64,000 bases of DNA from Candidatus Latescibacterota bacterium (GCA_965222605.1 OZ244960.1:5184001-5248000); one strand, 5' to 3'. Numbered from the stretch's first letter, positions 10,433 to 59,503 are shown. The notes: generated by a model not told the origin, from the sequence alone. Numbers and translations are program-made.

Positions 10433-10437
10433 GTGAC

Positions 10438-10683: not shown

Positions 10684-10695
10684 AGCTTACTCCGA

Positions 10696-11892: not shown

Positions 11893-11912
11893 GGCACCCT
11901 CTTATGGTAAAT

Positions 11913-25359: not shown

Positions 25360-25423
25360 TCATTCCTCTCTTTTCGCTGCCACGCATCTCTCTCCTGAGT
25401 TCCCGTCCGCCATCCGCTGGCTG

Positions 25424-26263: not shown

Positions 26264-26266
26264 CCT

Positions 26267-27154: not shown

Positions 27155-27157
27155 ACG

Positions 27158-36197: not shown

Positions 36198-36229
36198 TTC
36201 CAGCCCCCCACTTTTAAATAGTTTATAGG

Positions 36230-37015
36230 CTACACCTTTTCCAGTTCCAGGATCATCCCCGTGCCCTCGACACGCGTGTAAGCGTAAGACACCCCCTTGG
36301 GATGGTAGATCGTCGCCGGAGAGGCACCCTGCACGCATCCCTGCTCGGACTGGATCTCCACCTTCAGCGTCTTCTTTGGCGCTCCGATCAGCAGACTTGC
36401 CCCATCCGCCACCGGGCGATGGGATTTGAACTGATTTGCGGCCAGTTGGTCCGCGACGACCTGGTAGATCCTCAAAAGGATGCCGGGTTGTGCGAACCGG
36501 CTGTCGATGAATGACCATCGCTGAACCTCACCCTGCCCATCCATCCTCTCTGCGGCCTTGTAAACGTCCTCCACGGCCGGGGCCGGGATCCGCGAGGTAT
36601 CCACCTCTCCCGGACCGGCCAGCGATGCCTCGTAATCTCCCCGCAGGTTGACGTGAAAAGACCAGCCACTGCCGTCCACCAGTCTATAGTGATGCAGTGT
36701 GTACTGCGGAATCATCACCACCGCCGGGGCGTGTACATCAAACGTCCTTCCCTCAATCGTCACCGTGCTGCGAAGCCCGGACAGGTCCTCCCTGTCACCC
36801 AGAAACACGTAGAAGGTATTGCAATTGTGCCGGTGGTCCTCCAGCCATTCCGGCTGGTCTATCGGGACATCGTCCACCCGCCGCCCCACAACGTAGAGCA
36901 CGCTCTGCGGATAGACCTGTCTCCCGACGAACACAAACCGCCTCCCGGGTGCCAGATCGCTGTGGTAGGGCACCTCCGATGTGCGGCGTTCCTGCGGTGC
37001 AATCAAAACAGACAA
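36230..37015 (-). CDS. Hypothetical bicupin-like protein
   Basis: HRHNCN...APAVVMIPQYTLH in the N-half; degenerate copy (SPATIYHPKG) in the C-half; TTG start. Confidence 0.6.
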   Translation of the reverse strand: MSVLIAPQERRTSEVPYHSDLAPGRRFVFVGRQVYPQSVLYVVGRRVDDVPIDQPEWLEDHRHNCNTFYVFLGDREDLSGLRSTVTIEGRTFDVHAPAVVMIPQYTLHHYRLVDGSGWSFHVNLRGDYEASLAGPGEVDTSRIPAPAVEDVYKAAERMDGQGEVQRWSFIDSRFAQPGILLRIYQVVADQLAANQFKSHRPVADGASLLIGAPKKTLKVEIQSEQGCVQGASPATIYHPKGVSYAYTRVEGTGMILELEKV

Positions 37016-37169
37016 ATGAATCCCTAAAAAAAACAGGTGTCCCTTGGATATCCGTTTAATTCAAGAATACGGTCAAGGACCACCAGGTAAAAAATGAGGA
37101 CAAAAGACAGGAAGAAGAAAACGTGAGGGAAATAGCTGAGAGTGAAACACGAGAACAGTCCACAAAATC

Positions 37170-37207
37170 AACGCCGGGGGCGCGGGATAGTCCAAGCCCC
37201 CGGCGTT
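37170..37207 (-). terminator. Strong hairpin/terminator after the PorV-family gene
   Basis: AACGCCGGGGGC / GCCCCCGGCGTT 12-bp stem followed by GATTTT on the minus strand. Confidence 0.7.
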
Positions 37208-37228
37208 CGGCATACCGTTACAGACGCC

Positions 37229-38173
37229 TCAGAACGTTCCGTTCACCGTGAACCTCAAAGGTGCGTTGAAGAAATCACTATGGGTGTAAGCGATGTCCAC
37301 ACTTAGCGACGCGGTGCCAAAAGTCCGCTTGAGTCCGGCGCCGATGCTGAAATCCTCGGCGTCGTAATTCCACTTGTACCCCCCTCTCAGCGCCAGTGTA
37401 TTGGCCAACCACAGCTCAGCGCCCAGGTGGACGCGTCCTTCGTAATCGATCGCAAATACGTTCTCCGCTGAAAGCGTCAGGTAAGTGGGATCTCCCACCT
37501 TTCCGACCACCTCCATAGCCCCGGCGATCGTGTAAACCACCGGCATAAAAGCGCTCTCTGCAATAACGGTGTTGTCCTGTCCGAAATTCTTCAGGGTCAT
37601 CGCCAACCGGGAGTTCCGGAAGCCAGTGTAGAAAAGCGTACCGACGCTGGCGTCAAAAGTAGTGTTCGAATCTTCGAACAGGGACTCTTGAAGGTACCTG
37701 AAGTTCGCGCCGAAAGAGAGCCGATCGGTGAACTGGTAGGCATAGGCAACGCCGATTGCGAAGTCGTCCCCCTCTACCATCTTGCCGGTGCCTGTGGGTT
37801 CGAAAATGGTCGTCTCTTCAAACGGCTTCGTCTGGAACGACACCATGCTGACCCCTAAGACCGAAGCACCGAAACGATAGGCCACAGCGCCCGAGTAGAG
37901 TTTTGAATCGGCAAACCAGCGATTGTAAGAAAAGGTATATGCAGCCCTCTCGATGTGGGTCAGACCGGCCGGATTCCAGAAGATGCTATTGATATCGTTA
38001 GAAATGGCCATATACGCAGATCCCATCGCCACAGGGCGAGCCGATTGGCCAATCTTTACAAAGTTGAACCCGGTCGTACCCAGTTTCTTGAAGATGGCCT
38101 CTGCATCCACGGCCAGAAGCGGCCCCATCAGTGCGGCCAAAGTGGCTATCCACAGAATTCGTCTCATTCTCAT
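37229..38173 (-). CDS. PorV/PorQ family (FadL-like) outer-membrane beta-barrel
   Basis: Signal peptide; F.KIG.SARPVAMG.A...IFWNPAGL; C-terminal F; AAAGGAGG RBS before ATG 38173. Confidence 0.82.
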   Translation of the reverse strand: MRMRRILWIATLAALMGPLLAVDAEAIFKKLGTTGFNFVKIGQSARPVAMGSAYMAISNDINSIFWNPAGLTHIERAAYTFSYNRWFADSKLYSGAVAYRFGASVLGVSMVSFQTKPFEETTIFEPTGTGKMVEGDDFAIGVAYAYQFTDRLSFGANFRYLQESLFEDSNTTFDASVGTLFYTGFRNSRLAMTLKNFGQDNTVIAESAFMPVVYTIAGAMEVVGKVGDPTYLTLSAENVFAIDYEGRVHLGAELWLANTLALRGGYKWNYDAEDFSIGAGLKRTFGTASLSVDIAYTHSDFFNAPLRFTVNGTF

Positions 38174-38195
38174 GCCTCCTTTCATGGTCGCACGG

Positions 38196-40412
38196 TTATT
38201 TGACAATCATAAAGGTTCCGGTCTTCTTCTCACCCTCGCTCCCCGGCATCAGCGACTCCACCACGAAGAAGTACTTTCCCGTCGAGACCTTCGACGCGAA
38301 ATTCAGCACCACCTGATTCCAACTCGTCTCCCCCCGAACCGGAGACCTTGTCCGCACCGGGTTGTCCACCACCGCGACCAGATCTCCAGAGACGGTAAAG
38401 ATCGAGATCTTGCACCTTCTGGGTACATTTACAAACCGGATCTCTTCGCTACCGCCCGGGTAGCGGTGGATATCGTCGAGTCTGAACGGGTTGGGTACCA
38501 CAATCACCGGATCTTCGAATCGGTCTTTCTTATCGGAGGCCACCACAAACGGTATGCTTCGCAGGTGCGTCCTCGTTTCGGGCGCGCCGTGTCCGCTCTC
38601 CAGGGAAGGGATCGCCATCCCTGTGCCGTTCCAGTCGGCGTGCCCAGAGTCGTAACTCCGGACGGAATACCAGTAGCTGAACCCCGCCAGCGAGGCGGCA
38701 TCCTTGTAGCTATGCGTGCCAGTCGGGATATCTACCAGAAGCTCCCATGGCCCCATAGACGTGTGCTCCGAACGGTAGATCCGGTAGCCGGCCACATCCT
38801 TCGCCTCGGAGGTCCCCGCATAGTCGGGATCTTCGGCAGCCTCTACATCGGCAGACCAGGACAGCAGGTTGTTTCCGTCCTCATCGCTCTCTACCGTGAA
38901 TCTGATGTCGGGCGGTGCGTCCGGGATATCGTAGTTGTTGGCGTAGGCAAACCGGGCCCGATCCAGGTGCTGGGCCAGTGCCCGTTCGCCGTCGGACACC
39001 TGAGCCTGGGCACCCGACTGTCTGCTCCACCCAAAAATGTCCACCGTCCCCCCTGAGCTTGCAAATTCGGCCCCGGTGCCAGCCACCCAGGCCACCACGA
39101 TTTTGGCCTTATCGCCGGGCCCCAGATCGTAGGGTCCATAGGTCTGGGCGAAGCCCATGGTCATAAGCTCTGTGGGGTTGTCCTGGGGGTGCTTCGGCGA
39201 GATGGGGCGCGTCCCCTGCCCGGTCATATCCAGGTAGATCTGCTCGTCGGACATAGGATGCTCCGGCGTATCGATGTCGTCCAGGCTGCGGATCTGCCAC
39301 CAGAAGGGGTAGGCCGGCTGGTCGGGATTCTTTGGTGCCACATAGACCTCGTCGTCCTGGGCGAACCCGTCGGTCGGATCGGCGTCTAACAGGGCCAGCC
39401 CGATATACTGAAATGCCCGGAGTTGCCCTTCCACGATGAGGCCGGAGTTTCGGACATTGCCCGGGGCCTCAGCCAGCCGGGCAGGCTCTCCCGTGTCATC
39501 GGTCTGGTCAAAGGGGTAGTCGCCGTCATAGACGTACTGGATCTTTTTTCCCCTCAGATCCGCGTGGCCGTCGAAATTGGGCGCTTCGCTGTATTTGAAC
39601 CAGTCGTCCTGCACCCGGGTGTCCACACCCTCCCAGCCGCTGGTCCAGCCCGTCCACATGTGTCCCGCCCGAGAGATTCTGGGCAGATTGAAAAATGAAA
39701 GGTAGGTATCGTTCAACTGCTTCGTCCCGGTATTCTCCAGAATGACCTCTTGAATGATGAAGTCGTCGTAGTCCGGGTAGCCCCACGCCTTGGCCTTTCG
39801 AGTCACGACGATTCCCGTTTCGGTGCCCCACTGCGTAATCAGGATTTCCTCGGGTTGGGTGTTGTTGGGAATGTACCGGTTGTAATCGAAGTTGTGGATT
39901 TCAGTCACATCGTTGACCACTGGCGGTGCCCCCGGCCAGTAGTTGGCTGTCACCGCTCCAGTTGCCGGGGAGACCGTCCGCACCCCCAGGTCTTTCTCTG
40001 GACCGGCGGAGGCATCGTAGGTCATCGGCATGATATCCTCTGTGACGATCCGGGGGTTGGACATCGACACATTGTAGAAGCCGCTCTCGTCCTTTGTCAG
40101 CACATAGATTCCCTCTCCCTGGCTGGTGTGGGTCGAACGGTCCGCAAAGTCGATGCTCTCCTTAACCGCCCAATGGTCTTCAAAGTCTCCCTCCAAAATG
40201 GGAGCACCGGGGTACATCAGGCCCGCGTCCCACAGCCTCGCCCAGCTCCTGGTCATGCCCTCGGTCTTACCCTGGATGCCGTTGCTGCGATAGCCCGACC
40301 AGAGCAGCCCCCGGGTCAGGTTCCGCATCGGCGCAGCCTGGGCCCAAAGGCTACACGGCAGGAACAACAGCGATAGCACCACAGGCCAGAAGCCTATTCT
40401 CACTATTCGCAT
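38196..40412 (-). CDS. Secreted protein with FnIII-like domain and T9SS type-A-like C-terminal domain
   Basis: SPI signal (LWA/Q); GYRIYRS...YWYSVRSYD FnIII-like region; CTD motifs VVPNPF, IFTVSGDLV, GKYFFVV, GTFMIVK. Confidence 0.78.
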   Translation of the reverse strand: MRIVRIGFWPVVLSLLFLPCSLWAQAAPMRNLTRGLLWSGYRSNGIQGKTEGMTRSWARLWDAGLMYPGAPILEGDFEDHWAVKESIDFADRSTHTSQGEGIYVLTKDESGFYNVSMSNPRIVTEDIMPMTYDASAGPEKDLGVRTVSPATGAVTANYWPGAPPVVNDVTEIHNFDYNRYIPNNTQPEEILITQWGTETGIVVTRKAKAWGYPDYDDFIIQEVILENTGTKQLNDTYLSFFNLPRISRAGHMWTGWTSGWEGVDTRVQDDWFKYSEAPNFDGHADLRGKKIQYVYDGDYPFDQTDDTGEPARLAEAPGNVRNSGLIVEGQLRAFQYIGLALLDADPTDGFAQDDEVYVAPKNPDQPAYPFWWQIRSLDDIDTPEHPMSDEQIYLDMTGQGTRPISPKHPQDNPTELMTMGFAQTYGPYDLGPGDKAKIVVAWVAGTGAEFASSGGTVDIFGWSRQSGAQAQVSDGERALAQHLDRARFAYANNYDIPDAPPDIRFTVESDEDGNNLLSWSADVEAAEDPDYAGTSEAKDVAGYRIYRSEHTSMGPWELLVDIPTGTHSYKDAASLAGFSYWYSVRSYDSGHADWNGTGMAIPSLESGHGAPETRTHLRSIPFVVASDKKDRFEDPVIVVPNPFRLDDIHRYPGGSEEIRFVNVPRRCKISIFTVSGDLVAVVDNPVRTRSPVRGETSWNQVVLNFASKVSTGKYFFVVESLMPGSEGEKKTGTFMIVK

Positions 40413-40442
40413 CTTGAAACCTCCTTGTGATAATGAAGGAGC

Positions 40443-40485
40443 GCCTGGGATTGGGCCACAGCCTGTGTCCGATTCAATCCCAAGC
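40443..40485 (-). other. Intergenic stem-loop after the TonB-dependent receptor gene
   Basis: GCCTGGGATTG / CAATCCCAAGC stem with an inner CACA/TGTG pair; no U tail. Confidence 0.5.
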
Positions 40486-40512
40486 CCTGGATATAAAAAT
40501 AGAGTTGACCTG

Positions 40513-43500
40513 TCAGAAGGACACCATCACCCCCAACTCGATCTCCCTTGGGAACCCGGCATACCGGCTCAGTTCTCCGGTATCTCCGAACTGTTTGTAC
40601 TTGCCGCTGTCGGGCCTGGGTTGATCCAGACCGTTTTTCCACCAGTCCACACCCGGCCTGGGCTGTAGATCGCGCTGGTTAAACAGGTTCCTGACGTTGA
40701 AATAGAGTGTGGGACGCACCTGGTTGCGGAGCTGGAACCGCTTCACAAAGGCCAGGTCGGCCCGGGTATGCACAGGTCCGAACCACCACTTCGGTGGCTC
40801 GCCAGGTAGTGCGAACCGCCTGGCCCTCCCCTCCTGCATCCGATAGACCAACGTGACGCTGATGTCGCTCCACACCGGTCCATAGTCCGTCGGCGAGTGA
40901 TACATAAACACCGCCGACCCGAAACCCGGCCGTTCGGTGCCGAAGGTCCCCTGGGCTGTGTTCCGCCCCCGGGGATTCACATTAAACTGTTTGTAGGACC
41001 ACATGCCAGGCCAATCCTCCATTTCTTTGATCTCGGATTCCTTTAGCGGATCGTAGTCCGCCGCCGCGCCATTCTGGATGGCCCGGAGCCGTTCGTTGGC
41101 CCGGTGGCCGAATTCCATGATCTCATCGTTGGTCAGCGACACTGGCACTTCCGCTCCGGAATCGCTGCTGTTCACCTGTCCGTCGCCGTTGGTGTCCCGG
41201 GAGTGCGTCACATAGTAGTTGGTTCCGGTGGCGACCCAGTTCGAGTCGGGCACAAAGTAGGTCCGCCACCACCCGGACTGGCGTGCGGCCGACACCCACT
41301 GCTTATTGTACGAAACCATGAATGCGAACCCGTGGCTGAGATTCTTCCTCAGCGACAGCTCGATGCCCCGGACGTCCTCATAGGAGTTGTTCCTCCAGTC
41401 GGCCCCACCGCGCTGGGGGGCTTGCAACTGGGGGTCCCACCAGTAGCTGTTGCCGTAGAAAAACTGATCCGTCCCGCTCTTGTAGAAGACCGTCAGAGAA
41501 CTGATGTAGTCCCCGACAAAGTTCCAGTCGGTTCCGACCTCAAAGCTGGTGGTCGTTTCATACTTGATGCGGTCCCAGAATCCGGACCAGTCCCGCGAGT
41601 CCGATTGGTTCCCGACCTCCGTCGGGTCAATCTGCCCGTTGTTGTTGAAATCTGATGCCCGGGCCCGACTGACCCACCCATACTGAGCGATGTACCATGT
41701 GGAAGGCAACTGGCGAAACACTCCGAAGGAGTAGCGGATCGTGGCTCTGTCGGTGATCGGGTGTGAGACCCCGACCCGGGGACTCCAGGCCTGCAAGGCC
41801 TTGGCATCCACCAGGGGGATGAGTTGTTGGCGCGTCCACGATTTGGTCATCGGCGCCATCGACCAGAGTCCGTGTTCGCCTTGAGGCACCTGGGTGCCCC
41901 AATCCAGCCGGTCGTAGCGGGCGCCCACATTCAGGACCAGCCCGTGAAACTCCATCTTATCCTGGATGTACCAGGACGACTGGATGGGTTCCCACGGCGT
42001 ATCTCTGGTATACGGCTTCCCGGCCACGCGCAGGGAAAAACTCGTCATACTTTGCCAGCGTTCCCATACGGTCAGCACCTTGTCGAACGCGACCTCGAAT
42101 CCGCTCTTGACGAAGTGCCCCTTTGTGATCTGACTGGAGAAATCGAGTTTAAAGTTGATCCGTTCCCGCTTCGTAAACTGATACTCGGTTCTCGTTCTGG
42201 GAGCGGCTGTGAAGTAGCCGTCCGCGTCCCGACGAATGTCCTCGGTAACGCCTTCTCCGTATTGATCTACCGGTACGTTGGTGGTGTCCTGGTTATCCCG
42301 GAAAAAGGAAAGCTTCGCCTCGTAAAATGTCTTGGGCGTCAGGATGTGGGTTAGCGACACATAGGTCAGGTCGTTTTTATACTTGACCTGCCCGGAGCCA
42401 CTTCCCTCCGAAAGAAAGATGTCGCGGCCCAACTGCCTTCTGGCGCCTGAGCCTCCCCAGTAGCTTCCGGAACGGCCGTAGATGCCCCCCACGCCCACCT
42501 TGAACTTTGAGCGCGCATTCCCGGTCAGTTTGTAGGAGGCCTCGATGTTGCCAGGAGAGGCAACCCAACCCGATTTACGGTCTGGGTAGAGGTAGAAGCC
42601 ACGCTGTTTGCCCTCTGGAAACACCGCCGCCAATCCCCGATATCTGGCCGAGGCAAAAAAGGAGGCATTTTCGACCACTGGTCCGGACAGAGTCCCCTCC
42701 AGACGGTGGCCGATCACGCCGGTGTAGTCGGTCCGCTCGTGTACCCTCCGTCCGGTCTCCGGGTCGGTCTCGCCCGTCCAGTTCGAATCGTTCCACTTCA
42801 TCTTATCTTCATAATAGGGGCTGTCATAGACGTTGCTGCCCCAGTGCTTCTTCCCGGCCGGATTCAACAGGTAATCCAGGCTGCCGTGGAAGTCCTTGCT
42901 CCCCTCCTTTGTCACAATATTGACAACACCCGCTTGAGCGTTGCCGTACTCGGCCTCCATCCCGCCTGTAACCACGGCGAGTTCCTGGACAGCACTGGCG
43001 TTGACACCCTGAAAATTTCGGCTGGCGTGCGACCGCCGCTCCACATTGACTGCAGACATGGGCACCCCATCGACGTAATAAACCACGTCACTGCTCCCGG
43101 AGCCAGATGACGACGTGTCTCCACCCCGGATCGAGGTGTCTCCGTCCAGACCGACCCCGGCCAGGAGTTCAAGCACCTGTTCGGTGTCCTTGACGAGGGG
43201 AGCGACATCCTCGATGTTGGATTTATCCAGGATGTATTTTGTGGTTGTCCTGTCCGGCTCCACAGGGGGCCGCTCCGCAACGACCACTATTGCGGCCATC
43301 TCCAGGGCGGTCTCATTCAGGGTAAAATCCACAGTCGTCGTAAAATCAGCGATGGCCTGGACGTCCGTCTTGGAAACCTGGTCGTAGCCGATCATGGACG
43401 TCGTCAGCGTGTAGATCCCCGGATTCACCAGCAAGATCAAGTAGTCCCCATCTGGCCCTGTGGTGGTACCCTGTGAGGTGCCCTCGATGATCACATTTGC

Positions 43501-43644
43501 TCCGGGCAACGCCTGACCGTTGCTGTCCACGATCTGACCCTTGATCTTCCCTGTGGTCCCGGCAACCGCCTGCTCAGAGGTCGCTGAGAACAGCAGCAGA
43601 AAGGCGAGCAGCCCTACAATCCGGAAAACACGATCTCTCTTCAT
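40513..43644 (-). CDS. TonB-dependent receptor with N-terminal carboxypeptidase-regulatory-like domain
   Basis: GTTGKIKG...LPGANVII, plug motifs IRGG, YYVDG, GGMEAEYGNAQAGVVNIVTKEG; SPRVGVSHPIT; ends LGVMVSF. Confidence 0.9.
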   Translation of the reverse strand: MKRDRVFRIVGLLAFLLLFSATSEQAVAGTTGKIKGQIVDSNGQALPGANVIIEGTSQGTTTGPDGDYLILLVNPGIYTLTTSMIGYDQVSKTDVQAIADFTTTVDFTLNETALEMAAIVVVAERPPVEPDRTTTKYILDKSNIEDVAPLVKDTEQVLELLAGVGLDGDTSIRGGDTSSSGSGSSDVVYYVDGVPMSAVNVERRSHASRNFQGVNASAVQELAVVTGGMEAEYGNAQAGVVNIVTKEGSKDFHGSLDYLLNPAGKKHWGSNVYDSPYYEDKMKWNDSNWTGETDPETGRRVHERTDYTGVIGHRLEGTLSGPVVENASFFASARYRGLAAVFPEGKQRGFYLYPDRKSGWVASPGNIEASYKLTGNARSKFKVGVGGIYGRSGSYWGGSGARRQLGRDIFLSEGSGSGQVKYKNDLTYVSLTHILTPKTFYEAKLSFFRDNQDTTNVPVDQYGEGVTEDIRRDADGYFTAAPRTRTEYQFTKRERINFKLDFSSQITKGHFVKSGFEVAFDKVLTVWERWQSMTSFSLRVAGKPYTRDTPWEPIQSSWYIQDKMEFHGLVLNVGARYDRLDWGTQVPQGEHGLWSMAPMTKSWTRQQLIPLVDAKALQAWSPRVGVSHPITDRATIRYSFGVFRQLPSTWYIAQYGWVSRARASDFNNNGQIDPTEVGNQSDSRDWSGFWDRIKYETTTSFEVGTDWNFVGDYISSLTVFYKSGTDQFFYGNSYWWDPQLQAPQRGGADWRNNSYEDVRGIELSLRKNLSHGFAFMVSYNKQWVSAARQSGWWRTYFVPDSNWVATGTNYYVTHSRDTNGDGQVNSSDSGAEVPVSLTNDEIMEFGHRANERLRAIQNGAAADYDPLKESEIKEMEDWPGMWSYKQFNVNPRGRNTAQGTFGTERPGFGSAVFMYHSPTDYGPVWSDISVTLVYRMQEGRARRFALPGEPPKWWFGPVHTRADLAFVKRFQLRNQVRPTLYFNVRNLFNQRDLQPRPGVDWWKNGLDQPRPDSGKYKQFGDTGELSRYAGFPREIELGVMVSF

Positions 43645-43674
43645 ATTCTTCTCCTTTCATTGACAGGTTGCGGA

Positions 43675-44370
43675 TCACATATAAAACTTCACTCCAGCCC
43701 CGATGTCGAACAAGTGAAACGGATGGGTCTTTTTCACACCCCAGTTCAGGAAGGGCCTGAGCTCTCCAATGATCACATTGTAACTCACACGCAGGTCCAG
43801 GGCAGCCTTCGGACCCAAGAAGATCTGCATCCCGCCCCCTCCGCTTACACCCAGCGCTGTTCGCGTATCGTCGATCGCCTCCAGGAGCAGGGTCTGATCC
43901 AGCGTGGCGCCCCCTTGTTCGGGAAAGATGAGCCCGCTCACCTTAGAATGGTAGTTGTGGAACCCGGCCCCAACGGTAAGATAGGGAACGCTTCCTTCGC
44001 CTTCGAACTTCTTATCCTTCAGGGCGAAAAGCCAGTTGACCGCCAGGCTGTTAAAGGTCATATCGGACTTGGCCTGTGGACTTGCGTAGTCCCTTCCATC
44101 CTTGAACCGAAACGTCCGTCCCTCGAGGCTGCCGCCCGCAAACTTCGAGTAGTAATACTCCACTTCCACGATCCGTGCCGGACTGGTTACAAAGTGCGCA
44201 GCAGCCCCAAGCTTGAATCCCTCGGTGTACATATCTCTGAAGTTAAACAGCGGCGAATAGAGCTCGGCGGATACGCCGAACCCTCCTCTGTGGCCCTCTT
44301 CCTGAGCCACAGCAAAAGCCGTGGGCGACAATACCCACAAGAGAATCCATAAACCCATGATCCTTCTCAT
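43675..44370 (-). CDS. Small outer-membrane beta-barrel protein (OmpA-TM/PorT-like)
   Basis: Signal peptide, alternating strands, PYLTVGAG, C-terminal GAGVKFYM. Confidence 0.75.
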   Translation of the reverse strand: MRRIMGLWILLWVLSPTAFAVAQEEGHRGGFGVSAELYSPLFNFRDMYTEGFKLGAAAHFVTSPARIVEVEYYYSKFAGGSLEGRTFRFKDGRDYASPQAKSDMTFNSLAVNWLFALKDKKFEGEGSVPYLTVGAGFHNYHSKVSGLIFPEQGGATLDQTLLLEAIDDTRTALGVSGGGGMQIFLGPKAALDLRVSYNVIIGELRPFLNWGVKKTHPFHLFDIGAGVKFYM

Positions 44371-44419
44371 AAAAACCTCCTTGAAGATACGCAGTCATTT
44401 TTCGACCAACCCACTCGTC

Positions 44420-45538
44420 TCAGATAATCTCCCTTTCCGGACCCAGCCGATTGTAAAACTGGGGGATATAGACCTTCCGGCCCCCCTCGTTGATCGAGAT
44501 TAGCGAACAGATCGCTGCAGCGCAGCTTTTTGCCGCCTCATAGACGTTGATAAATGGCAGCCTATCGTCTAAAATCGCGTCCACGAAGTCGCGGCAGTTG
44601 TGGTACGTACCGCCGCCGTGACCGGTTCTTTTGGCAACCTCGGCATCCAGTTCGAGCCCCACCAACTCCAGGGGCTCAATTTCTCCGGGAAGCCCGCCTT
44701 CCTCCTGTGCATGTGCAATACCGAGTACTCCATTATGCCGATCTCCCTCAACGGCCGCCCTGGTGCCGTATAGCGACTTGTAGAGGTTGCAGCCAGGCCA
44801 GGCCATCGCCTTGCAACAGGCGACCTTCACCGTCACCCCACCGGTCGTCCTGAAAATTGCCGTCTCCCAGTCGTTGACTGTCCGATATGGCGAGTAAATG
44901 CGGTTTCCCAACCCGACCACCTCGGTGAAATCCTGCCCGATGATCCAGCGGATGTCGTCGATCGCGTGAATGCCGCCGCCGGAAGAGATGCTCTCCTGCG
45001 TCGTCGTACCGAACCCGTCCCGCCAGGTCTTCTTTCCATCTCTTACAAACAGGTACACCAGGCTGTGTGTATATTCAGACTCGGCGTAGCATACCTCGCC
45101 GATTGTGCCCTTCTTCACCAGCCGCCTCAAAGTGATCGTGCGTGGATCCCACCGGCTGTTCTGTTCCATGGCCAGCTTCAGCCCCGTTCTCTCTACTGCC
45201 TTGACGATCTCCATGCACTGGTGCAGCTTGTCGGCATTCTCTACCATCGGAATGGTCGTCAGGATGTGCTTTCCCGCCTCCAGGGCCGCCAGACACTCAT
45301 CTCCGTGGCGAAACCCCGGTGTGCCCGTGCAGATGAAGTCCACGTCCTGATCGGCCAGCAGGTCCCCGTAGTCCGTATAGACCCTGGGCACCCCGTACTC
45401 CCTGGCCAACTGATTCGCCTTCTCCTCGTCGATATCGCACACCGCAGCGACATCTACTTCGTCGATGTAGTCGTGGAATGTCCTCAGATGTGACTCCCCG
45501 AATCCAAGCCCCACGATCCCTGCCTTCAAGGTAGCCAT
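44420..45538 (-). CDS. Gfo/Idh/MocA protein, GH109-like subtype
   Basis: Start at MATLKAGIVGLGFG (45538) after GGAGG; TIP instead of EKP, EYTHS, TGHGG. Confidence 0.82.
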   Translation of the reverse strand: MATLKAGIVGLGFGESHLRTFHDYIDEVDVAAVCDIDEEKANQLAREYGVPRVYTDYGDLLADQDVDFICTGTPGFRHGDECLAALEAGKHILTTIPMVENADKLHQCMEIVKAVERTGLKLAMEQNSRWDPRTITLRRLVKKGTIGEVCYAESEYTHSLVYLFVRDGKKTWRDGFGTTTQESISSGGGIHAIDDIRWIIGQDFTEVVGLGNRIYSPYRTVNDWETAIFRTTGGVTVKVACCKAMAWPGCNLYKSLYGTRAAVEGDRHNGVLGIAHAQEEGGLPGEIEPLELVGLELDAEVAKRTGHGGGTYHNCRDFVDAILDDRLPFINVYEAAKSCAAAICSLISINEGGRKVYIPQFYNRLGPEREII

Positions 45539-45629
45539 CAATTCCCTCCGACAGATAACAATCCGTAAGTCACGCAAATGAAAATGTTGCAACAAATCCA
45601 GGCAATACGATTCCTCGCCAAAACAAACC

Positions 45630-45650
45630 AACCGTTCCATAGTTAATTTA
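45630..45650. promoter_or_regulatory. Inverted repeat, candidate operator upstream of the 30 kb locus
   Basis: TAGTTAAT-ttaag-ATTAACTA perfect 8-5-8 palindrome in an AT-rich leader. Confidence 0.5.
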
Positions 45651-45862
45651 AGATTAACTAATTTTTACTTAACATCAAAATCTGTTTTTCTAATATTGAA
45701 AGGCGCAATGCAGAAAAATTATAACATTTTTTTTCATTGCTCTGGCCATTAGCTCCTCCGCGCAAGGTTTGGTAGCTAATGGCTTTTTTTATGCGCCTTG
45801 CCAATAAAATTCCGTTTTTACGCTCCAAACTTTTCTCTTATACCCGGGATTGCAGTGCTGCC

Positions 45863-46570
45863 TTAGCCCGGCTGAACTCGCTGCGTGCGCTTTACCCATT
45901 GCCTCAAGCCGGTATCGAAGTGATCCCACACTGCCTGCCGCATCCCGCCCGGATTACGCGCCTTCAGGGCGAGGAAGATCCGCTCGTGGTTCTGGAAGTG
46001 TTCCAGGTCAATTCTCTCCCAGTCCCACCACTCACGGTGAGCCGTAACGAAAAATTCACTCAGCACCCGTCCAAGAGCCTGAGTCGCCAGGTTCCCTGTT
46101 GCTTCGTAGGTCGCAAAGTGAAACGCCCAGTCGTGCGTGTAAAACTCGACAGGACGTTCCAACGCCTCCCGCATCGCTTCCAGGTGTTGCCCCATCGCTT
46201 CTAGCTGATCTTCTGTTACGCGCTCTATTACCATCTCCACAATTCCAATATCCACCGCCCGCCGCAATTCGTACATCTCTATAATCGTCTTTTTATTTAT
46301 GGATGGAATAAAGCTCAGATACTTAAACAAAGCCTGAGGGTCGAACTCTCTGACACTGATCCCATGCCTGGGACGAGCTTCCAGAATGCCTATTGCCTCT
46401 AAAATCTTGACCGCTTCTCGAACGGAGGCACGACTCACGCCAAACGCTTCTGCCATCTCCCGCTCTGTGGCCAACCTGTCTCCGGGCATCAATCCATTCT
46501 GCAAAATATGGTTCTTGATCGCACCGATGATCCTCTTACTCAGATTTTCTTTTTCAATGCTATTAAACAA
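45863..46570 (-). CDS. GntR family, FadR subfamily transcriptional regulator
   Basis: PGDRLATEREMAEAFGVSRASVREA HTH; FCD domain (D.AFH...N, H..I). Confidence 0.92.
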   Translation of the reverse strand: MFNSIEKENLSKRIIGAIKNHILQNGLMPGDRLATEREMAEAFGVSRASVREAVKILEAIGILEARPRHGISVREFDPQALFKYLSFIPSINKKTIIEMYELRRAVDIGIVEMVIERVTEDQLEAMGQHLEAMREALERPVEFYTHDWAFHFATYEATGNLATQALGRVLSEFFVTAHREWWDWERIDLEHFQNHERIFLALKARNPGGMRQAVWDHFDTGLRQWVKRTQRVQPG

Positions 46571-46665
46571 AGCCCATTCTCCCGACCTTTCTTTGTATTT
46601 CCATTGTACAGATATTTATGACTTTTTTGCTCTGTTTACAAAACCAGTCATATCATTATATGGTA

Positions 46666-46682
46666 TAATGGTCTGACCATTA
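46666..46682. promoter_or_regulatory. FadR-type operator (autoregulatory)
   Basis: Perfect palindrome TAATGGTC-T-GACCATTA matching the TGGTCnGACCA FadR/PdhR/LldR box. Confidence 0.82.
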
Positions 46683-46688
46683 ATAAAA

Positions 46689-46717
46689 ATAGTACGCCCA
46701 TTCACATCCTCTGTCAA
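46689..46717 (-). promoter_or_regulatory. Sigma70-type promoter of the regulator
   Basis: TTGACA-17 bp-TACTAT on the minus strand, just upstream of the operator. Confidence 0.78.
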
Positions 46718-46825
46718 GGATTTTTTGGCTCATGTAGGCTTCGGGATGAAAAATATCTGAGGAGAAGGTATAAACAGTTGACCTCTTGCGAATTGGTGAA
46801 CCTTCCTCTTTGAAAAGGTCTGGCA

Positions 46826-48502
46826 TCAGGCTGCCGAAATGACGGGAAATACGATGTGAGACGGATACCGGCTCGAGTGATGTACGGTCTGCCGGGCCGG
46901 GCGCATCTCTGTATCGGTGCCGAATTCGTGGCCGGTATTTGGGTTGCGGTCGAAGCGCGGAAAGTTGGACGAAGAAATTTCGACACGGATGCAGTGGCCT
47001 TTCCGGAACACGTTGCCGGTGACACTGAGGTCGATTTCGTATTCGTAGATCCGGTTGGGTTCGAGCAGGGTCGGGTTGGTAAGGCTTTCGCGGTATCGAG
47101 CACGCAAGATGCCGTCGCAGAGATTTTTGGCGTAACCCGTAGGGGAGACATCTACGAGCTTGGCCGTCCAGTCGGTGTCCGGGCTGTCGGTAGCGGCGTA
47201 GAGCACGGCTTTGATTGGTCCGGTGACTTCCATGTCGGCTTCCAAGGGAGCCGAGGTGTAACAGAGCACATCGCCGCGCATCTCGACCGGGCGCTGATCG
47301 TAGGGCCCCCAGGGCACGATGTGAGGCGAGCAGCAGTTGTTGCCACCCAGGGTCTGGACGGGGTACCGAGGGTCATAGACGAAGCGGTCCGGGGTGTCTC
47401 CTTCTGGGAGAGTGGGCGACAGGCTCCCGTCGCCGAGCAGGCTGTTGGCACTACCGCAGGAATGGAGGTACCATTTCTGCCACTGAGTGCGCGCCAGGGG
47501 CCATTCGTCTTCATCGCGCCATTCGTTGGTGCCCATGATGAAGAGGCGCAAGGGCGGCTCGTCCACGATGCCGTTGTCGATGCCTTTGAGCCAGTAGTCG
47601 AACCATCGCAGTTCCAGGGCCTCTAAGTCCACCATTGAGTGAGTGCCGAAGTCGATGTCGCCTGTTCGGGGGGAGGTGCTCAAGACGTGGGGCCACGGCC
47701 CCACGATGAGCTTGCTCTGCCGGGCTTCGGGGGTGCGGCCGTGCTGCCGCAGGCCGTTGAAGTTGGTGAAGGTGTTTGCGGCGTAGAGGTCATACCAGCC
47801 GCCCATGTTGAATGCGGGGACAGCGATGTCGCCCCACCGTTTTTCGTCATTGATTTCGTCCCAGTAATCGTCGTAGGCGGCGTGTTGAACCCAGTCTTTC
47901 CAGAAGCCGAGGTCGCGCCCAGCCTGTTCGTCCATTTCTATGAGGGGGAGGTAACGAAAGGCTTCAGTCCAGTTGTGGTATTCGATGCTCTGGGCAGTGC
48001 GGGCGGTGGTGCGCATGCCCCAGGTCATGAGGACGTTGAGCTGAAAGGCACCACCGGGATAGACCAACCCGCTGAAGTAGTCGCAGCAGATGACGCGAGG
48101 GGCAAGGCAGGTGAGATATTGGCTTTTGTGCGGGGCGCTTTGCCACTGGACCAGGCCCAGGTACGAAGCACCGGACATACCAATTTTGCCGTTGCTCCAT
48201 TCCTGGCGGCCGATCCATTCCTGGGTGTCGTAGCCGTCTTCGCCTTCCCGGAAAGGGTAGTCGTTGCCCTCCGAGTCCCAGCGGCCGCGACAGTCCTGCA
48301 TCGCACAGACGTAGCCACAGTTGGCCAGCCGCCGGGCTTTTTCGATCATGGCATCAATGTTATTGCTGTAGGGGGTACGCATCAAGACAGTGGGAAATTT
48401 TCCCGCGGCTCTGGGGAGGTAGATATCAGCGGACAGATTAACCCCGTCCCTCATTGGGATTTTTACATCCAGCCGCATATCTACGCCGTAATTGGGTTCC
48501 AT
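46826..48502 (-). CDS. CocE/NonD family (S15) hydrolase
   Basis: MRDGVNLSADIY, RTPY, DCRGRWDSEG, GASYLG, GGWYD, GPWPH, SSSNFPRFDRN; start after GAAGGAG. Confidence 0.92.
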   Translation of the reverse strand: MEPNYGVDMRLDVKIPMRDGVNLSADIYLPRAAGKFPTVLMRTPYSNNIDAMIEKARRLANCGYVCAMQDCRGRWDSEGNDYPFREGEDGYDTQEWIGRQEWSNGKIGMSGASYLGLVQWQSAPHKSQYLTCLAPRVICCDYFSGLVYPGGAFQLNVLMTWGMRTTARTAQSIEYHNWTEAFRYLPLIEMDEQAGRDLGFWKDWVQHAAYDDYWDEINDEKRWGDIAVPAFNMGGWYDLYAANTFTNFNGLRQHGRTPEARQSKLIVGPWPHVLSTSPRTGDIDFGTHSMVDLEALELRWFDYWLKGIDNGIVDEPPLRLFIMGTNEWRDEDEWPLARTQWQKWYLHSCGSANSLLGDGSLSPTLPEGDTPDRFVYDPRYPVQTLGGNNCCSPHIVPWGPYDQRPVEMRGDVLCYTSAPLEADMEVTGPIKAVLYAATDSPDTDWTAKLVDVSPTGYAKNLCDGILRARYRESLTNPTLLEPNRIYEYEIDLSVTGNVFRKGHCIRVEISSSNFPRFDRNPNTGHEFGTDTEMRPARQTVHHSSRYPSHIVFPVISAA

Positions 48503-48573: not shown

Positions 48574-51105
48574 CTATTGCTCCTTCGAGACACGCTTATT
48601 TTTCGATCGGCTTCCATAGTGGAAGCCGACCTCGCGGGTGGCCGTCTCACCACTCACCAGGTCCGTGATCGTCACCTCCAGGACGTTGATGCCGGGTTTG
48701 GCCTTGCTCAATTCCAACTCCACATATTCATTTTCACTCGACTCTGATCCGACTTGCTCGTAGGTCACTGAGACCTGAGGCTTCTTGCTCCTGAGGAGGG
48801 ATCGGAACCCGGAGGCAACCATTCCGACGATCCCCACCGAACCCTCGGGACTGAACCGGACCAGATATTGTACCTTGTAGCGGGTCTGACCGAAAGCGTC
48901 TTTATTCAGGTTGTAGATCTCGAAATAGGCATAGACCTTCTGGTCCGGTTTGTAGGCACGGGAGGGCATCGGTACCACCCAGATATTGCCCTTCCGAAAT
49001 CTGTTGTTCGATCCTTTATCGCCGATGGCGGAAGCGAGCTCGATGTCGCTCATCTGGAGCGTCTCTAACTGATAATCCTTGACCTCCAGGGACTGTTTGT
49101 AGGCCCCCACGTGCCCTGAGACCAGGTCCTTGAGTTGAACCTGGAGTTCGTATTTTCCAGGCGGCACCTGGACCTGAAGCACGTCGGGGACAAACGTCCC
49201 CTTCGCCCAGTTGGATTCTCCGGTGTTTCGATAGGAAAACGTGTCTGTCGTTCGGTAGATGTTGGTGTGGCCTTCGTCCGCCAGGGCCAGCGCGCCCTGC
49301 GCGTGGGCCATCGAACCCGTGTCTCCCTCGACGAATTCTACCTGTTTGGGTGAAATGCCGTAATAGACTTCGAGCGTGGTCTGGCCATCGGGGCCTCGGA
49401 AGTCGGCCAGGTCGTAGTAGAAGTGGAGGGCAGAGCCCCGGAGGCTGGGACGGTAATAGTCCGGGGTTGCGACAACGGTTCTTTCAAAGACGAGGCTGGG
49501 CGCATATTCGAGCATTCGCGCCGTATATTTCAACTGCCTGTGCCCAGCAGGGATCGGGGGAAGCGGGGCAAAGTCGTAGGTGCGGTTGCCCAGTTCGTCG
49601 GTAAAGGTAAACTCGATGCCGTTCTGGATCTGTGTATAAGTCCAGGTCTCCCAGGGCACCGTATTGACCTCGTTGTCGATAGTGAGGGGCGCATAGCCCT
49701 GGAAATTGAGCCGAGCTTTCAGATCCAGGATATCATCGGAAAGGCTCCCGAGTCTGTCTTCTTCTTGAGGGGTGGGAATATTCTGCAACATAAGACGATC
49801 CAGATACGAATCCGTTGATCCCGAAAGCGCTTCAACATTCTCATCATCCAGGGTGGGATCTTCAACGGCTGTCCCTTCAGCCATCTGACGGGAGTCAACG
49901 GTGACGTCATCAGACAGAGCGTCACGGCGCGTCCGGACCGGGAAGACCGGTCCGGTAAAGGTCAAATAATGAGCCTCGGGTCCATACATATCCACAGCCA
50001 TCCGGGTGCGCACGGCCTCAACTTCGGCACTCACACTGAGTTGCCTCAGGTCGGACCGCGACCTGTAGTCGGGTTCCCCATAGCGGATGTAAACCTCTCC
50101 CCGCCTGTCCCAGGGATGGGGCCCCTCAGCGAAGAGGGTGCGGGCATACCACACCCGACGATAGTGCTCAATGATGCGCTCGTTGACCGGGGTCATGATA
50201 TCGGAATCCCGACGCATCCAGAACTGCTCCAGATAGGCCTGGCGCTCCGAAGCTTCAACGATAGCCCGGTAGTCGTCGAGTTCCTTCTTGGAGGCCACAA
50301 GTGAGATGTCCGTATAGATCTGGCGCTCCCCTTCGTCCAGGTTCTGTAGATAGCGTTCGAAGTGTTCCAGGGCGGATTCGAAGCGCTCATGAAAGAAATA
50401 GCCCTGGGCTACCAGGGGCAGGAGCCGGAACTCCTGGGGATTGGCTTCCAGATAAGGGGTGAGGTAGGTGTTAATCTTGTCATATTGCCTGGCCTGCACG
50501 CAGGAGAGCCCGAAAGCGTAGAGGCCATTTGGGTCATCGGACTCCAGTTTAACGTATTTTAAATAGTATCCAATCGCCTTTTGGTAATCCTCCCGAAAGT
50601 GTTCGTAGGCCTCTCCGAGAAGCCAGTAGGCCGGGGCGTAGAGCGAATCGATCTTGACCGCCCGCTTGCCCTCGCCCACAGCACGCCGGAAATTGTAGAA
50701 GGCCGCCAGTCCCTTGCCAGGCATCTTGACGTAGGCCAGCCCTAAACCCACGCGGGCATCGGGGAGGTTGGGATCGAGTTCTTTGGCCGCCGCGAAGGCA
50801 TCTTTGGCTACCTCGAAGTCTTCCTTCTTGAGGGCAGCGTAGCCGAGCCGGATCTGGAGGGTGGCGTCTTTCGGGTATGCCTCGGCCAGGCGAGCAAAGG
50901 TATCAACGGCCTTGCCAAACTCGCTCGCTCGCACCTGCTGCTCCCCCAGGGTGATCATAGAGTCCCGCGCGGATTTGGAGAGGACTTGTGGTGCTGCCTC
51001 GGACGGTAGATCCTGGGCAGAGACGGCAAGTGTGAGGATCCAAATCAACGTCCAAAAGGGGACCAAAAAGAAAGTAAAACGCCGAAATCCGACAGAAACG
51101 CTCAT
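48574..51105 (-). CDS. GWxTD-domain protein with N-terminal TPRs
   Basis: Signal peptide, TPRs, FW.RRD.D..TPVNER..EHYRRVWYA, variant core PWDRRGEVYIRYGEPD, WETWTY. Confidence 0.82.
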   Translation of the reverse strand: MSVSVGFRRFTFFLVPFWTLIWILTLAVSAQDLPSEAAPQVLSKSARDSMITLGEQQVRASEFGKAVDTFARLAEAYPKDATLQIRLGYAALKKEDFEVAKDAFAAAKELDPNLPDARVGLGLAYVKMPGKGLAAFYNFRRAVGEGKRAVKIDSLYAPAYWLLGEAYEHFREDYQKAIGYYLKYVKLESDDPNGLYAFGLSCVQARQYDKINTYLTPYLEANPQEFRLLPLVAQGYFFHERFESALEHFERYLQNLDEGERQIYTDISLVASKKELDDYRAIVEASERQAYLEQFWMRRDSDIMTPVNERIIEHYRRVWYARTLFAEGPHPWDRRGEVYIRYGEPDYRSRSDLRQLSVSAEVEAVRTRMAVDMYGPEAHYLTFTGPVFPVRTRRDALSDDVTVDSRQMAEGTAVEDPTLDDENVEALSGSTDSYLDRLMLQNIPTPQEEDRLGSLSDDILDLKARLNFQGYAPLTIDNEVNTVPWETWTYTQIQNGIEFTFTDELGNRTYDFAPLPPIPAGHRQLKYTARMLEYAPSLVFERTVVATPDYYRPSLRGSALHFYYDLADFRGPDGQTTLEVYYGISPKQVEFVEGDTGSMAHAQGALALADEGHTNIYRTTDTFSYRNTGESNWAKGTFVPDVLQVQVPPGKYELQVQLKDLVSGHVGAYKQSLEVKDYQLETLQMSDIELASAIGDKGSNNRFRKGNIWVVPMPSRAYKPDQKVYAYFEIYNLNKDAFGQTRYKVQYLVRFSPEGSVGIVGMVASGFRSLLRSKKPQVSVTYEQVGSESSENEYVELELSKAKPGINVLEVTITDLVSGETATREVGFHYGSRSKNKRVSKEQ

Positions 51106-51404
51106 CGTACACCTCGAGTCTATACACCGCTGGGATCTTGACTGTAAAGGTGGATCCTTCTCCAACCACTATTACGTCTACAGAACTTTAGAATAATATA
51201 AGGTTCGCTAACGGGAGAAGTCAAGCGGCAGGTCGTTATATTGCTGTGTCCTCACGAAGTTTAAAAAACTCCTTTTGAAATTTTTTAAAAAAAGCTAACT
51301 TAAACCGAAGACTGTCAGGCTGGGGTTCCCAGGTACACTCATGACGCAAAATTTATTCAGTCAGAGACGAGGCCCACCATGTCCGCACGCCGAGGAGGAG
51401 GGCT

Positions 51405-59193: not shown

Positions 59194-59370
59194 TTTGGCT
59201 TTCCTGTGTGTGTACGACTTGAAGATAGTCATTTTTCGGCGTTTTTCAAGTCCCCATCAATTCTTTTTGGCAATTTTTGGATAGACATATCTCATTTAGG
59301 ACGTCGGGACTTTGGGCAAATTTTGGGCGACTGATTTTTAAATAAAAACCAATTTGTTGAACCAAAACAA

Positions 59371-59503
59371 AAGCCCGCCTCCTCAATAGAAGCGGGCCCT
59401 GCTGTTTGTAAACACAATAGGAGATTACTCTGCCAGTGCAGCGTGGGCGGCTGCGAGGCGGGCGATGGGGAAGGGCGAACAGGATACGTAATCCATGCCA
59501 ATT
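59371..59503 (-). repeat. Displaced duplicate of the ppdK 3' end and its terminator
   Basis: Translates IGMDYVSCSPF--PIARLAAAHAALAE*; 59416..59469 is identical to 61431..61484; related hairpin at 59371..59400. Confidence 0.9.

Follow-up and report, generated by a model that had tools for sequence, protein, structure and literature searches.

Pairs of SusC and SusD are taken as the hallmark of polymer feeding in the Fibrobacteres-Chlorobi-Bacteroidetes (FCB) lineage, but outside Bacteroidota and their close relatives such pairs are not known. The stretch of DNA analyzed here, 64,000 nucleotides of a Candidatus Latescibacterota bacterium (GCA_965222605.1 OZ244960.1:5184001-5248000; the window), carries on its minus strand at positions 37229-44370 a cassette of four tightly packed co-oriented open reading frames (ORFs). 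They encode, in the order of transcription, a small outer-membrane beta-barrel (B), a TonB-dependent receptor (T), a signal-peptide protein outside all known families (C) and a barrel of the PorV/PorQ family (V). With modest confidence we read the locus as a modular outer-membrane nutrient-uptake cassette of non-Bacteroidota FCB phyla, in which C would be tethered by its cognate PorV-like barrel V. The cassette would then probably be a functional counterpart of the SusC/SusD unit (PMC11658791).

As in the SusC/SusD units and utilisomes of Bacteroidota polysaccharide utilisation loci, a TonB-dependent transporter with a CarboxypepD_reg-type domain is encoded beside a putative surface partner, many paralogues occur per genome, and regulators, inner-membrane transporters and catabolic enzymes surround the cassette (PMC11658791). 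Unlike in SusC/SusD units, T falls outside the SusC/RagA family and C is not SusD: it lacks a lipobox (0 of 43 sequences) and is rich in beta and coil by crude propensities, whereas SusD is all-helical. Moreover, C has a C-terminal domain (CTD) of the type used in type IX secretion (T9SS), the unit includes its own PorV-family barrel and a small barrel, and the hosts of the cassette are Latescibacterota, Fidelibacterota (Marinimicrobia), Calditrichota and KSB1. A TonB-dependent transporter capped by a non-SusD, beta-rich surface protein is found in BtuB-BtuG of gut Bacteroides, but BtuG, unlike C, is a lipoprotein and has neither a CTD nor a partner barrel.

Oar of Myxococcus xanthus has an N-terminal carboxypeptidase-regulatory-like domain. 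It resembles T in being a TonB-dependent barrel of about 1000 amino acids with a TonB box and in being linked to a secreted protein, as described in PMC6434023 and PMC11658791. In T, however, no Oar-type barrel was matched at E<=0.1, the neighbourhood is one of import, and the linked protein C has a T9SS-type CTD and its own PorV-like barrel.

Also proteins kept on a barrel by their CTD have been described. According to two sources (PMC10202324, section 16; PMC12365241), PorZ is bound by PorQ and PorU by PorV, the CTD being kept as an anchor by the cognate barrel. The cassette is similar in pairing a PorV/PorQ-family barrel with a CTD protein, and tails of the C family matched the PorZ model in 14 of 22 cases and the PorU model in four. 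It differs in that V remains far below the equivalog cut-offs, C lacks the body of PorZ or PorU, and retention of the CTD in C is presumed by analogy. Furthermore, C and V are encoded with a TonB-dependent receptor and multiplied within genomes, while those pairs are single housekeeping secretion parts. In the type B systems SprB-SprF and PG1035-PorP, the gene of the CTD protein is followed by that of its own PorV-like barrel, as C is by V, and this cognate barrel of the PorP/SprF type is needed for both secretion and surface anchorage (PMC9143113 and PMC12618676). The commonest Pfam match of the C tails, CHU_C, points in the same direction (21 of 22 at E<=1). Unlike in type B systems, V is of the PorV/PorQ and not of the PorP/SprF family, the NCBIfam type B model matched 1 of 22 tails against 16 of 22 for type A, and C is linked to uptake genes instead of gliding.

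A 14-stranded barrel of the FadL/PorV type placed on a larger barrel and holding a surface protein with its loops is known from two cases. The FadL-like BamG packs on BamA in the beta-barrel assembly machinery of Bacteroidota and holds BamH (PMC12578637), and PorV docks on SprA and binds the CTD with its extracellular loops (PMC10994853). Together they make a similar placement of V on T plausible. For V, T and C this geometry is proposed from sequence, V matching the BamG model at only E 0.04, and the sole hint of a V-T contact, unlike in these structures, is an exploratory partial correlation of 0.51.

A cassette of TonB receptor, CTD protein and PorV-family barrel was not described in any text found in a full-text literature search, whose scope left out most subscription journals and supplements, and the genome papers on Latescibacteria and Caldithrix are silent on it in their matched passages. 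This agrees with the initial annotation of the window, which knew of no functional characterization. The kind of each part and the tethering of CTD proteins by barrels are known; the novelty lies in their constant association with a TonB-dependent transporter, in the distribution of this set over several non-Bacteroidota FCB phyla and in the large uncharacterized C family.

The four co-oriented genes of the initial annotation were recovered on the minus strand. B (43675-44370; 231 aa) has a signal peptide with glutamine after the predicted cut. T (40513-43644; 1043 aa) consists of a signal peptide, a CarboxypepD_reg domain, a TonB-box-like motif, a plug and a putative large divergent barrel ending in Phe. 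C (38196-40412; 738 aa) is divided into signal peptide and head (residues 1-500; 38913-40412), a putative Fn3-like stalk (residues about 501-630; 38523-38912) and a T9SS-type C-terminal domain assigned by family-level homology (residues 631-738; 38199-38522). V (37229-38167) has 312 aa when counted from the ATG at 38167. The V ORF extends to a TTG at 38206, giving 325 aa, but since its nearest homologues have 312 aa, translation more likely starts at the ATG, in which case V would not overlap with C. Each of the four proteins has a hydrophobic, signal-like segment at its N-terminus.

The gene order was examined in 74 loci obtained from the best 80 of 236 relatives found when one genome per species was scanned with the C-family alignment; the window proteins were placed on these loci by tblastn. 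The loci come from about 45 assemblies and are not independent, removal of near-copies leaving 24 non-redundant cassettes. T was directly upstream of C in 64 of the 66 loci with enough upstream sequence, and V directly downstream in 66 of 69. The order T-C-V was present in 62 of the 63 loci with both flanks readable, the exception being L038, and in at least 56 of these 63 also B preceded T. By label, the order was found in 43/43 Latescibacterota, 3/3 loci of a Gemmatimonas-labelled metagenome-assembled genome (MAG), 2/3 Calditrichota, 1/1 KSB1, 9/9 Marinimicrobia and 4/4 unclassified loci. The estimated median gaps were 21 nt between B and T, 28 nt between T and C, and 24.5 nt between C and V (n=56 each). 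These counts place the arrangement far beyond chance, and the triad of receptor, CTD protein and PorV barrel proposed initially is conserved. More distant triads, whose middle protein shares only its tail with C, were present in L024 (5289-12588), L036/L042, L041 and L025.

Three complete Latescibacterota chromosomes of ~6 Mb (L001-L003) carry the same locus with 97-99% identity; OX638329.1, OZ253501.1 and OX638317.1 are complete chromosomes with this locus. The remaining loci belong to further Latescibacterota, Neomarinimicrobiota (Marinimicrobia/Fidelibacterota), Calditrichota, KSB1, the Gemmatimonas-labelled MAG, six unclassified records and one short archaeon-labelled contig. The host of the window is a member of Latescibacterota and not of Bacteroidota. 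Eight of the listed loci lie on the chromosome OZ253501.1, which thus has at least eight copies. The tree of T contains at least six paralogous lineages within Latescibacterota and a separate clade of Marinimicrobia with Calditrichota/KSB1, a shape which indicates old vertical inheritance with expansion. Recent horizontal arrival was considered and dropped, as the GC content is like that of the surroundings and the tree follows the phylum labels.

Some records deserve separate mention. The cassettes of the Gemmatimonas-labelled MAG ('uncultured Gemmatimonas sp.'; L024, L026, L044 and L055) nest inside Latescibacterota clades, L055 beside L068, which makes the label doubtful. L050, a 3.85-kb contig labelled as a Poseidoniales archaeon with T and C genes, is probably mis-binned. 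Chromosome OZ253501.1 has a C homologue and a V homologue that are divided over two frames each (L002:11920-11923; L019:12740-12746), being either frameshifted pseudogenes or assembly errors.

The window copy of T matched CarboxypepD_reg with 65 bits and the Plug domain (PF07715) with 34.0 bits, the cut-off of the latter being 23.9; no barrel model was matched in the family scans. Both domains were found in all 19 T-family members, and the barrel PF00593 in two of them (best 1.5e-16). The receptor of a distant cassette matched PF00593 at 1.3e-28, and the T-family profile matched the plug region of FepA (E 2e-13). Between the CarboxypepD_reg domain and the plug, all 19 members have a motif of the type E-[LI]-V-V-V-A-E-R-P-P-V-E-P-D-K-T, which by its resemblance to the known consensus is taken to be the TonB box, and the last residue is F in all 19. 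With the plug above its gathering score and the motif conserved, the TonB-dependent receptor of 1043 aa first annotated here was retained. The same cannot be said of the accompanying comparison with SusC/SusD-type polysaccharide utilisation loci: against the SusC/RagA model TIGR04056, T scored 53.3 bits, far below the cut-off of 368.25, and only along residues 33-123 in the N-terminal domain, and T was rejected as a SusC. The Oar-type barrel family was absent from the Pfam matches of T at E<=0.1.

No SusD-family protein was found among the 43 window ORFs (four searched at E<=0.1 and the 39 of at least 150 aa at E<=1e-5) nor in the flanks of 16 related loci (106 ORFs; E<=1e-6), which agrees with the earlier statement that a SusD-like lipoprotein is lacking. 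As T is not a SusC, this absence is to be expected and is not a loss. Taken strictly, with an adjacent SusC/SusD pair, the locus is not a polysaccharide utilisation locus.

B only just reached the OMP_b-brl model PF13505 (29.1 bits, cut-off 28.7), and on this narrow margin the small beta-barrel of the initial annotation was accepted; the OMP domain TIGR04565 was matched by 9 of 16 B-family members (best E 4e-9). The sole match of B in the PDB, a designed lectin, was taken as noise. A crude count of amphipathic strands (eight segments for B, 18 overlapping ones for V) was not used.

V matched the PorV/PorQ family model NF033709 with 163.2 bits (cut-off 90) along profile positions 1-322 of 326, and the Pfam PorV model with 33.4 bits (cut-off 27). 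All equivalog scores were below their cut-offs, the best being that for PorQ (NF033711; 70.8 against 220), followed by PorV (NF033710; 65 against 250) and PorV2 (46.2 against 325). The matches to the PorP/SprF model TIGR03519 (E 0.0017, 17.9 bits against 90.55) and to the BamG model remained weak, and that to Toluene_X/FadL was below threshold (E 1.7e-4, 20.6 bits against 29.7). The V-family profile matched PorV of F. johnsoniae (6h3i_F) at E 7e-22, covering chain residues 6-235 and 324-395, so that ~90 residues of its later loops (between chain residues 235 and 324) have no counterpart in V; FadL channels in the PDB were not matched at E<=1. The nearest homologues of V are named 'PorV/PorQ family protein' by NCBI, and 31 of 34 family members end in F. 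By this homology V is a true PorV homologue, being the orthologue of neither PorV nor PorQ, and the dedicated PorV paralogue proposed at first stands as a family member but not as an orthologue of either. A distant relative of V unlinked to the C family, P0329 (782 aa), combines a PorV-like/UPF0164 barrel with FlgD_ig, a CTD-like fold, and an OmpA domain.

The tail of C was the most difficult part to assign. In the window copy, the best matches were CHU_C (PF13585; E 0.046; 14.3 bits against 27) and an M6-like T9SS model (E 0.096), both below cut-off, and the type A models TIGR04183 and PF18962 were not matched at E<=1. When 22 isolated family tails were searched at E<=1, the best Pfam matches were CHU_C at 3.6e-7, Por_Secre_tail PF18962 in 16 tails (best 2.5e-4) and FlgD_ig in two. 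With NCBIfam, TIGR04183 was matched by 16 tails (best 6.2e-5), the PorZ model at best at 6.7e-8, the M6-like T9SS substrate model by 10 and the type B model TIGR04131 by one; scans of whole C proteins gave no CTD match. The clearest evidence came from profile comparison. Aligned with hhalign to six bona fide CTDs which related loci of Marinimicrobia, Calditrichota and KSB1 encode, the 22 tails gave 95.5% and E 1.4e-8 over 70 columns, and the whole C-family profile aligned to nine small CTD proteins with 94.1% and E 1.3e-7 over 76 columns, through the last residue. A PDB profile search with the tails gave nothing above noise (best E 0.61). At the family level, the homology thus places the C tail in the T9SS CTD superfamily, and it is not assignable to type A or type B, Pfam favouring CHU_C (type B) and NCBIfam type A and PorZ. 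Of the type-A-like CTD annotated initially, the CTD homology is therefore upheld for the family and the type is not, the window copy lying below all cut-offs; likewise TIGR04183, the model named for checking it, is not matched by the window tail.

The rest of C belongs to no known family. The window copy had no Pfam or NCBIfam match at E<=0.1. A word index gave 61 relatives, and a search of representatives of 50% identity clusters gave 900 at E<=1e-3, 301 at 1e-10 and 59 at 1e-30; every source name seen among them was 'hypothetical protein', and none had a precomputed Pfam domain. Many distant relatives align only from residue about 420 to 738. For the head, of about 470 residues, the family profile found no PDB relative, and no Pfam domain was found in the heads of 61 distant relatives; hydrolase, lyase or peptidase families were absent from the window copy, 43 close and 61 distant relatives, and internal repeats were not found. 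An Atlas look-up of the homologues P0022 and P0010 gave only unnamed or CTD-bearing clusters and no structure. According to crude propensities, a weak method, residues 29-420 contain 0-7% helix, which makes a SusD-like helical protein unlikely. Residues W210, D216 and D217 are invariant in 43 sequences, and D269, D296 and D306 nearly so. The stalk is suggested by a weak match of profile positions 557-627 to the Fn3-like 3mpc_A (E 0.033), and fn3 was matched in the aligned region by some distant relatives.

The N-terminus of C is hydrophobic and, with no lipobox in the first 45 residues of any family member, a lipoprotein was ruled out, in agreement with the 738-aa signal-peptide protein of the initial annotation. 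Surface display of C must therefore rest on the CTD. A signal-cut site of the form small-x-small-Q was present in at least 24 of the 43 family members. Glutamine directly after the predicted cut was seen in B (44370-44302), C (40412-40338) and at least these 24 relatives of C, and it recalls the 'Q-rule' that a title cited by PMC11285876 names for Bacteroidetes.

The fit of C to V was approached through paralogues. Where two C paralogues share one V (14 pairs), their CTDs are 68-80% identical and their heads 50-53%. Where each C has its own V and the head identity is similar (0.45-0.60), the CTDs are 47-59% identical, and none of 129 pairs reaches 68%. The likeness of CTDs under a shared V suggests a specific fit between CTD and V. 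Mirror-tree and partial Mantel analyses were exploratory and are given little weight, all parts co-diverging (r 0.78-0.96) and such tests over-calling under shared ancestry; the partial values were 0.51 for V and the T barrel, 0.37 for the head and the T barrel, 0.27 for V and the CTD, 0.00 for V and the Fn3 part, and 0.54 for B and the N-terminal part of T.

The surroundings of the cassette form an uptake and catabolic locus. A Gfo/Idh/MocA oxidoreductase gene (44420-45640, minus strand; Pfam) begins 49 nt upstream of B and is probably the first gene of the transcription unit; it has partial NCBIfam matches to inositol and glycoside 3-dehydrogenases, and a Gfo/Idh-type gene stands at the equivalent place in L001-L005. 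Next upstream is a GntR/FCD-family regulator (45863-46570, minus strand; Pfam and NCBIfam). Downstream of V by 5.4 kb lies the gene of a polytopic membrane protein with DUF6785 and DUF6784 (29797-31812, minus strand; Pfam E 2.6e-110) and about 10-11 hydrophobic 19-mers, followed by a sugar-type ATP-binding cassette (ABC) transporter with binding protein, two permeases and a MalK-like ATPase (24232-28504, minus strand; Pfam). The same-strand block also includes several Gfo/Idh/MocA oxidoreductases, a short-chain dehydrogenase/reductase, an M20 peptidase, a PhyH dioxygenase, FG-GAP/ASPIC proteins, an MR_MLE enolase and a metallohydrolase. Of 41 Latescibacterota loci, 38 encode a relative of the DUF6785 protein at some place, and in 34 it stands on the same strand at most 4 kb after V. 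The literature search found no paper on DUF6785 and the PDB search no solved relative; DUF6785/DUF6784 is probably a candidate new inner-membrane transporter family which travels with the cassettes.

In 15 Marinimicrobia-type loci, the first 4 kb after V contained, on the same strand, a ceramidase-like gene in all 15, GDPD in 12 and a sodium:solute symporter (SSF) in seven. The flanks of various loci contain genes for sulfatase, FGE, arylsulfotransferase, heparinase II/III-like protein, NamZ, PhyH and MR_MLE. Together with the plug, the TonB-box-like motif and the multi-copy spread, this neighbourhood argues for import. The substrate of the window copy is probably a glycoside or sugar derivative.

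Further CTD proteins accompany some cassettes. With a hidden Markov model (HMM) built from the bona fide CTDs, 20 other CTD proteins were detected, each of them in a locus of Marinimicrobia, Calditrichota or KSB1 or in an unclassified one. The Calditrichota and KSB1 loci have an additional bona fide CTD protein just upstream of B. Marinimicrobia-type loci encode, between B and T, an additional protein of ~340 aa that is rich in Trp and has a bona fide CTD (L032:920-1966, L043:1040-2029, L054:2087-3112 and six more), its body having no solved relative. Also GWxTD-domain proteins, some with TPR repeats, stand beside cassettes (window 48574-51165, L007:13253-14620, L016:13388-14878), relatives of the 456-aa GWxTD type being present in 26 of 41 Latescibacterota loci.

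After V, an intrinsic-terminator-like hairpin with a U tract (37161-37207, minus strand) closes the cassette. It has a 12-bp G+C stem with arms 37207-37196 and 37181-37170, a U tract at 37169-37161 and a folding energy of -39.3 kcal/mol (z -3.75), and in the five orthologous loci L001-L005 the stem is kept and the loop variable; the strong hairpin initially reported is accordingly real. It was missed by the generic terminator scan because of the loop limit of that scan, which found 11 terminator-like sites against 10.1 expected and 10 promoter-like sites against 5.5 expected. The sigma-54 -24/-12 pattern was at chance level (64 matches, 66.7 expected), Rfam gave nothing in 36500-47000 at E<=0.1 or window-wide at gathering scores, and a tRNA search found none. 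The 222-nt gap upstream of the Gfo/Idh gene preceding B holds inverted repeats (45705-45783), and a palindrome lies upstream of the GntR/FCD regulator gene (46647-46677); both are possible operator sites.

The hairpin is separated from the Gfo/Idh gene that comes next, with its real start near 36200, by a stretch of ~700 nt (about 36230-36937), which is present in the window, L002 and L003 and absent from the otherwise near-identical L001, L004 and L005. It contains an ORF of no family (36230-37015, minus strand) and only weak repeats. Two low-GC stretches, 10001-12000 (0.457) and 58001-60000 (0.461), differ from the about 0.56 found elsewhere; the latter takes in an N6-methylase-like gene (57631-59232) and has an AAA protein gene (59754-61331) and parAB (55848-57504) as neighbours.

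Starting from what is seen directly, which comprises the genes present and their families, the conserved order, the spread in many copies and a neighbourhood of the import type, the following mechanism is proposed. T would be the TonB-energised import channel. C would be exported by Sec with its ordinary signal peptide, receive no lipid anchor, reach the cell surface through its T9SS-type CTD and, the CTD remaining uncut, stay there. V would hold it in the way known for PorQ with PorZ, for PorV with PorU and for PorP/SprF barrels with type B CTD proteins, and the constant presence of a private V beside C fits these known cases of a CTD kept by its cognate barrel. The Fn3-like stalk would place the head over or beside T, where the head may bind or process the substrate and pass it to T, a role equivalent to that of SusD and other surface lipoproteins for SusC. 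B may be an accessory barrel. For its passage over the inner membrane the imported product would use either the DUF6785 protein or the ABC system, and it would then be degraded by the oxidoreductases and hydrolases. By analogy with those systems we infer the retention of the CTD on V, the complex with T and the surface location of C.

A number of observations count against this mechanism. The tail of the window copy reaches the cut-off of no curated CTD model and is ambiguous as to type. T9SS core genes (SprA/Sov, PorK-N, PorU, PorV) were not found among the scanned window ORFs, the rest of the genome not having been searched; bona fide CTD proteins were found by the HMM in none of 45 Latescibacterota loci, and a review naming other FCB phyla that possibly have a T9SS does not list Latescibacterota among them (PMC11285876). 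Pfam recognizes the barrel of T in only two of 19 members, and the head of C has no recognizable binding or catalytic fold. Between paralogous heads the identity remains 35-55% even where the neighbouring enzymes are quite different, which is not what would be expected of a strongly substrate-specific binder. Marinimicrobia-type loci have a second C paralogue and thus two C per V, and C occurs without T or V in L038, where both flanks are readable, and in L031, L059 and L060, with one readable flank. As for the tether, the resemblance of CTDs sharing a V is suggestive only, because very few independent duplication events are involved, V follows the T barrel more closely than the CTD in the exploratory partial Mantel analysis, and the four longer relatives of V include no fused C-V or T-V form.

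The mechanism may be taken further, B, T, C and V forming one stable multi-barrel machine with V docked on T and C acting as a hinged lipid-free lid. As a whole this is a tentative extension which we think possible and not probable. It would make the cassette a new class of lidded TonB-dependent transporters built out of components of type IX secretion. For Latescibacterota, Fidelibacterota (Marinimicrobia), Calditrichota and KSB1 it would be the principal entrance for high-molecular-weight nutrients, and within the FCB superphylum it would stand beside SusCD as a sister solution.

Among the alternatives, the one surviving best keeps the cassette and the V tether and makes C an accessory surface enzyme or a glycan- or peptide-binding protein beside an unlidded T, like the glycoside hydrolase and surface glycan-binding lipoproteins of utilisomes (PMC11658791). 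The large head with its conserved acidic residues D216, D217, D269, D296 and D306 would suit such a protein, and the stalk would keep the head off the membrane. Also the two C and the further CTD protein per T in Marinimicrobia-type loci fit accessory proteins better than a 1:1 lid. Against this stand the lack of any hydrolase, lyase or peptidase match and, fitting a fixed partner, the strict adjacency of T and C and the parallel divergence of the head and the T barrel in the exploratory analysis. This alternative is rather unlikely when taken by itself; within the uptake model, a lid and an accessory enzyme or binding protein are about equally likely roles for C.

The cassette might instead be a secretion module in which T exports C outward in the manner of Oar and V receives it, with surface display independent of the SprA translocon. 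Oar is described as exporting the protease PopC in Myxococcus (PMC6434023; PMC11658791, section 4.12), T combines a CarboxypepD_reg domain with a putative very large divergent barrel, and in the Latescibacterota sequence examined neither a T9SS core gene nor a bona fide CTD protein was seen. The exploratory co-variation of V, highest with the T barrel, would then recall the docking of PorV on SprA (PMC10994853). Yet inner-membrane importers and catabolic enzymes stand beside nearly all loci, many paralogous copies occur per genome, no Oar-type barrel family is among the Pfam matches of T at E<=0.1, and T9SS-type CTDs are known only as signals of the SprA/Sov route (PMC10202324), all of which leaves outward export with a small chance.

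Equally small is the chance that V is a FadL-type channel for a hydrophobic or amphipathic part of the substrate, the CTD of C being an ordinary signal that is cleaved off and served by a general PorV encoded elsewhere in the genome. PorV is a member of the FadL superfamily (PMC12578637), V gives a match to Toluene_X/FadL below the threshold, and the ceramidase-like and glycerophosphodiesterase genes of Marinimicrobia-type loci point to lipid-derived substrates. However, the profile of V finds PorV and no FadL channel in the PDB, the PorV/PorQ model is matched end to end, V directly follows C in nearly all loci regardless of the neighbouring enzymes, and the CTDs sharing one V are unusually alike. 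A non-nutritional unit for adhesion, motility or envelope structure, with a surface protein on an anchor barrel and a receptor-like barrel, would accord with the mostly adhesive type B CTD proteins on PorP/SprF barrels (PMC12618676 and PMC9143113), with the missing enzymatic signature of C and with the TPR and GWxTD proteins recurring nearby, but is very improbable given the conserved TonB-box-like motif and plug, the systematic linkage to transporters, sulfatases, dehydrogenases and regulators, and the many divergent copies per genome.

Read as a nutrient-uptake cassette with C tethered by V, the locus would represent a different, equally modular solution to that of SusC/SusD pairs in several little-studied sister phyla, including abundant ocean and sediment bacteria. 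At its centre is a large protein family, C, with no Pfam model and no solved relative. If the tether is true, T9SS-type CTDs and PorV-like barrels would be general mounts for non-lipoprotein partners of transporters, which would give both of them wider roles. The cassette may also serve as a marker for uptake loci where predictors of polysaccharide utilisation loci based on SusD come up empty.

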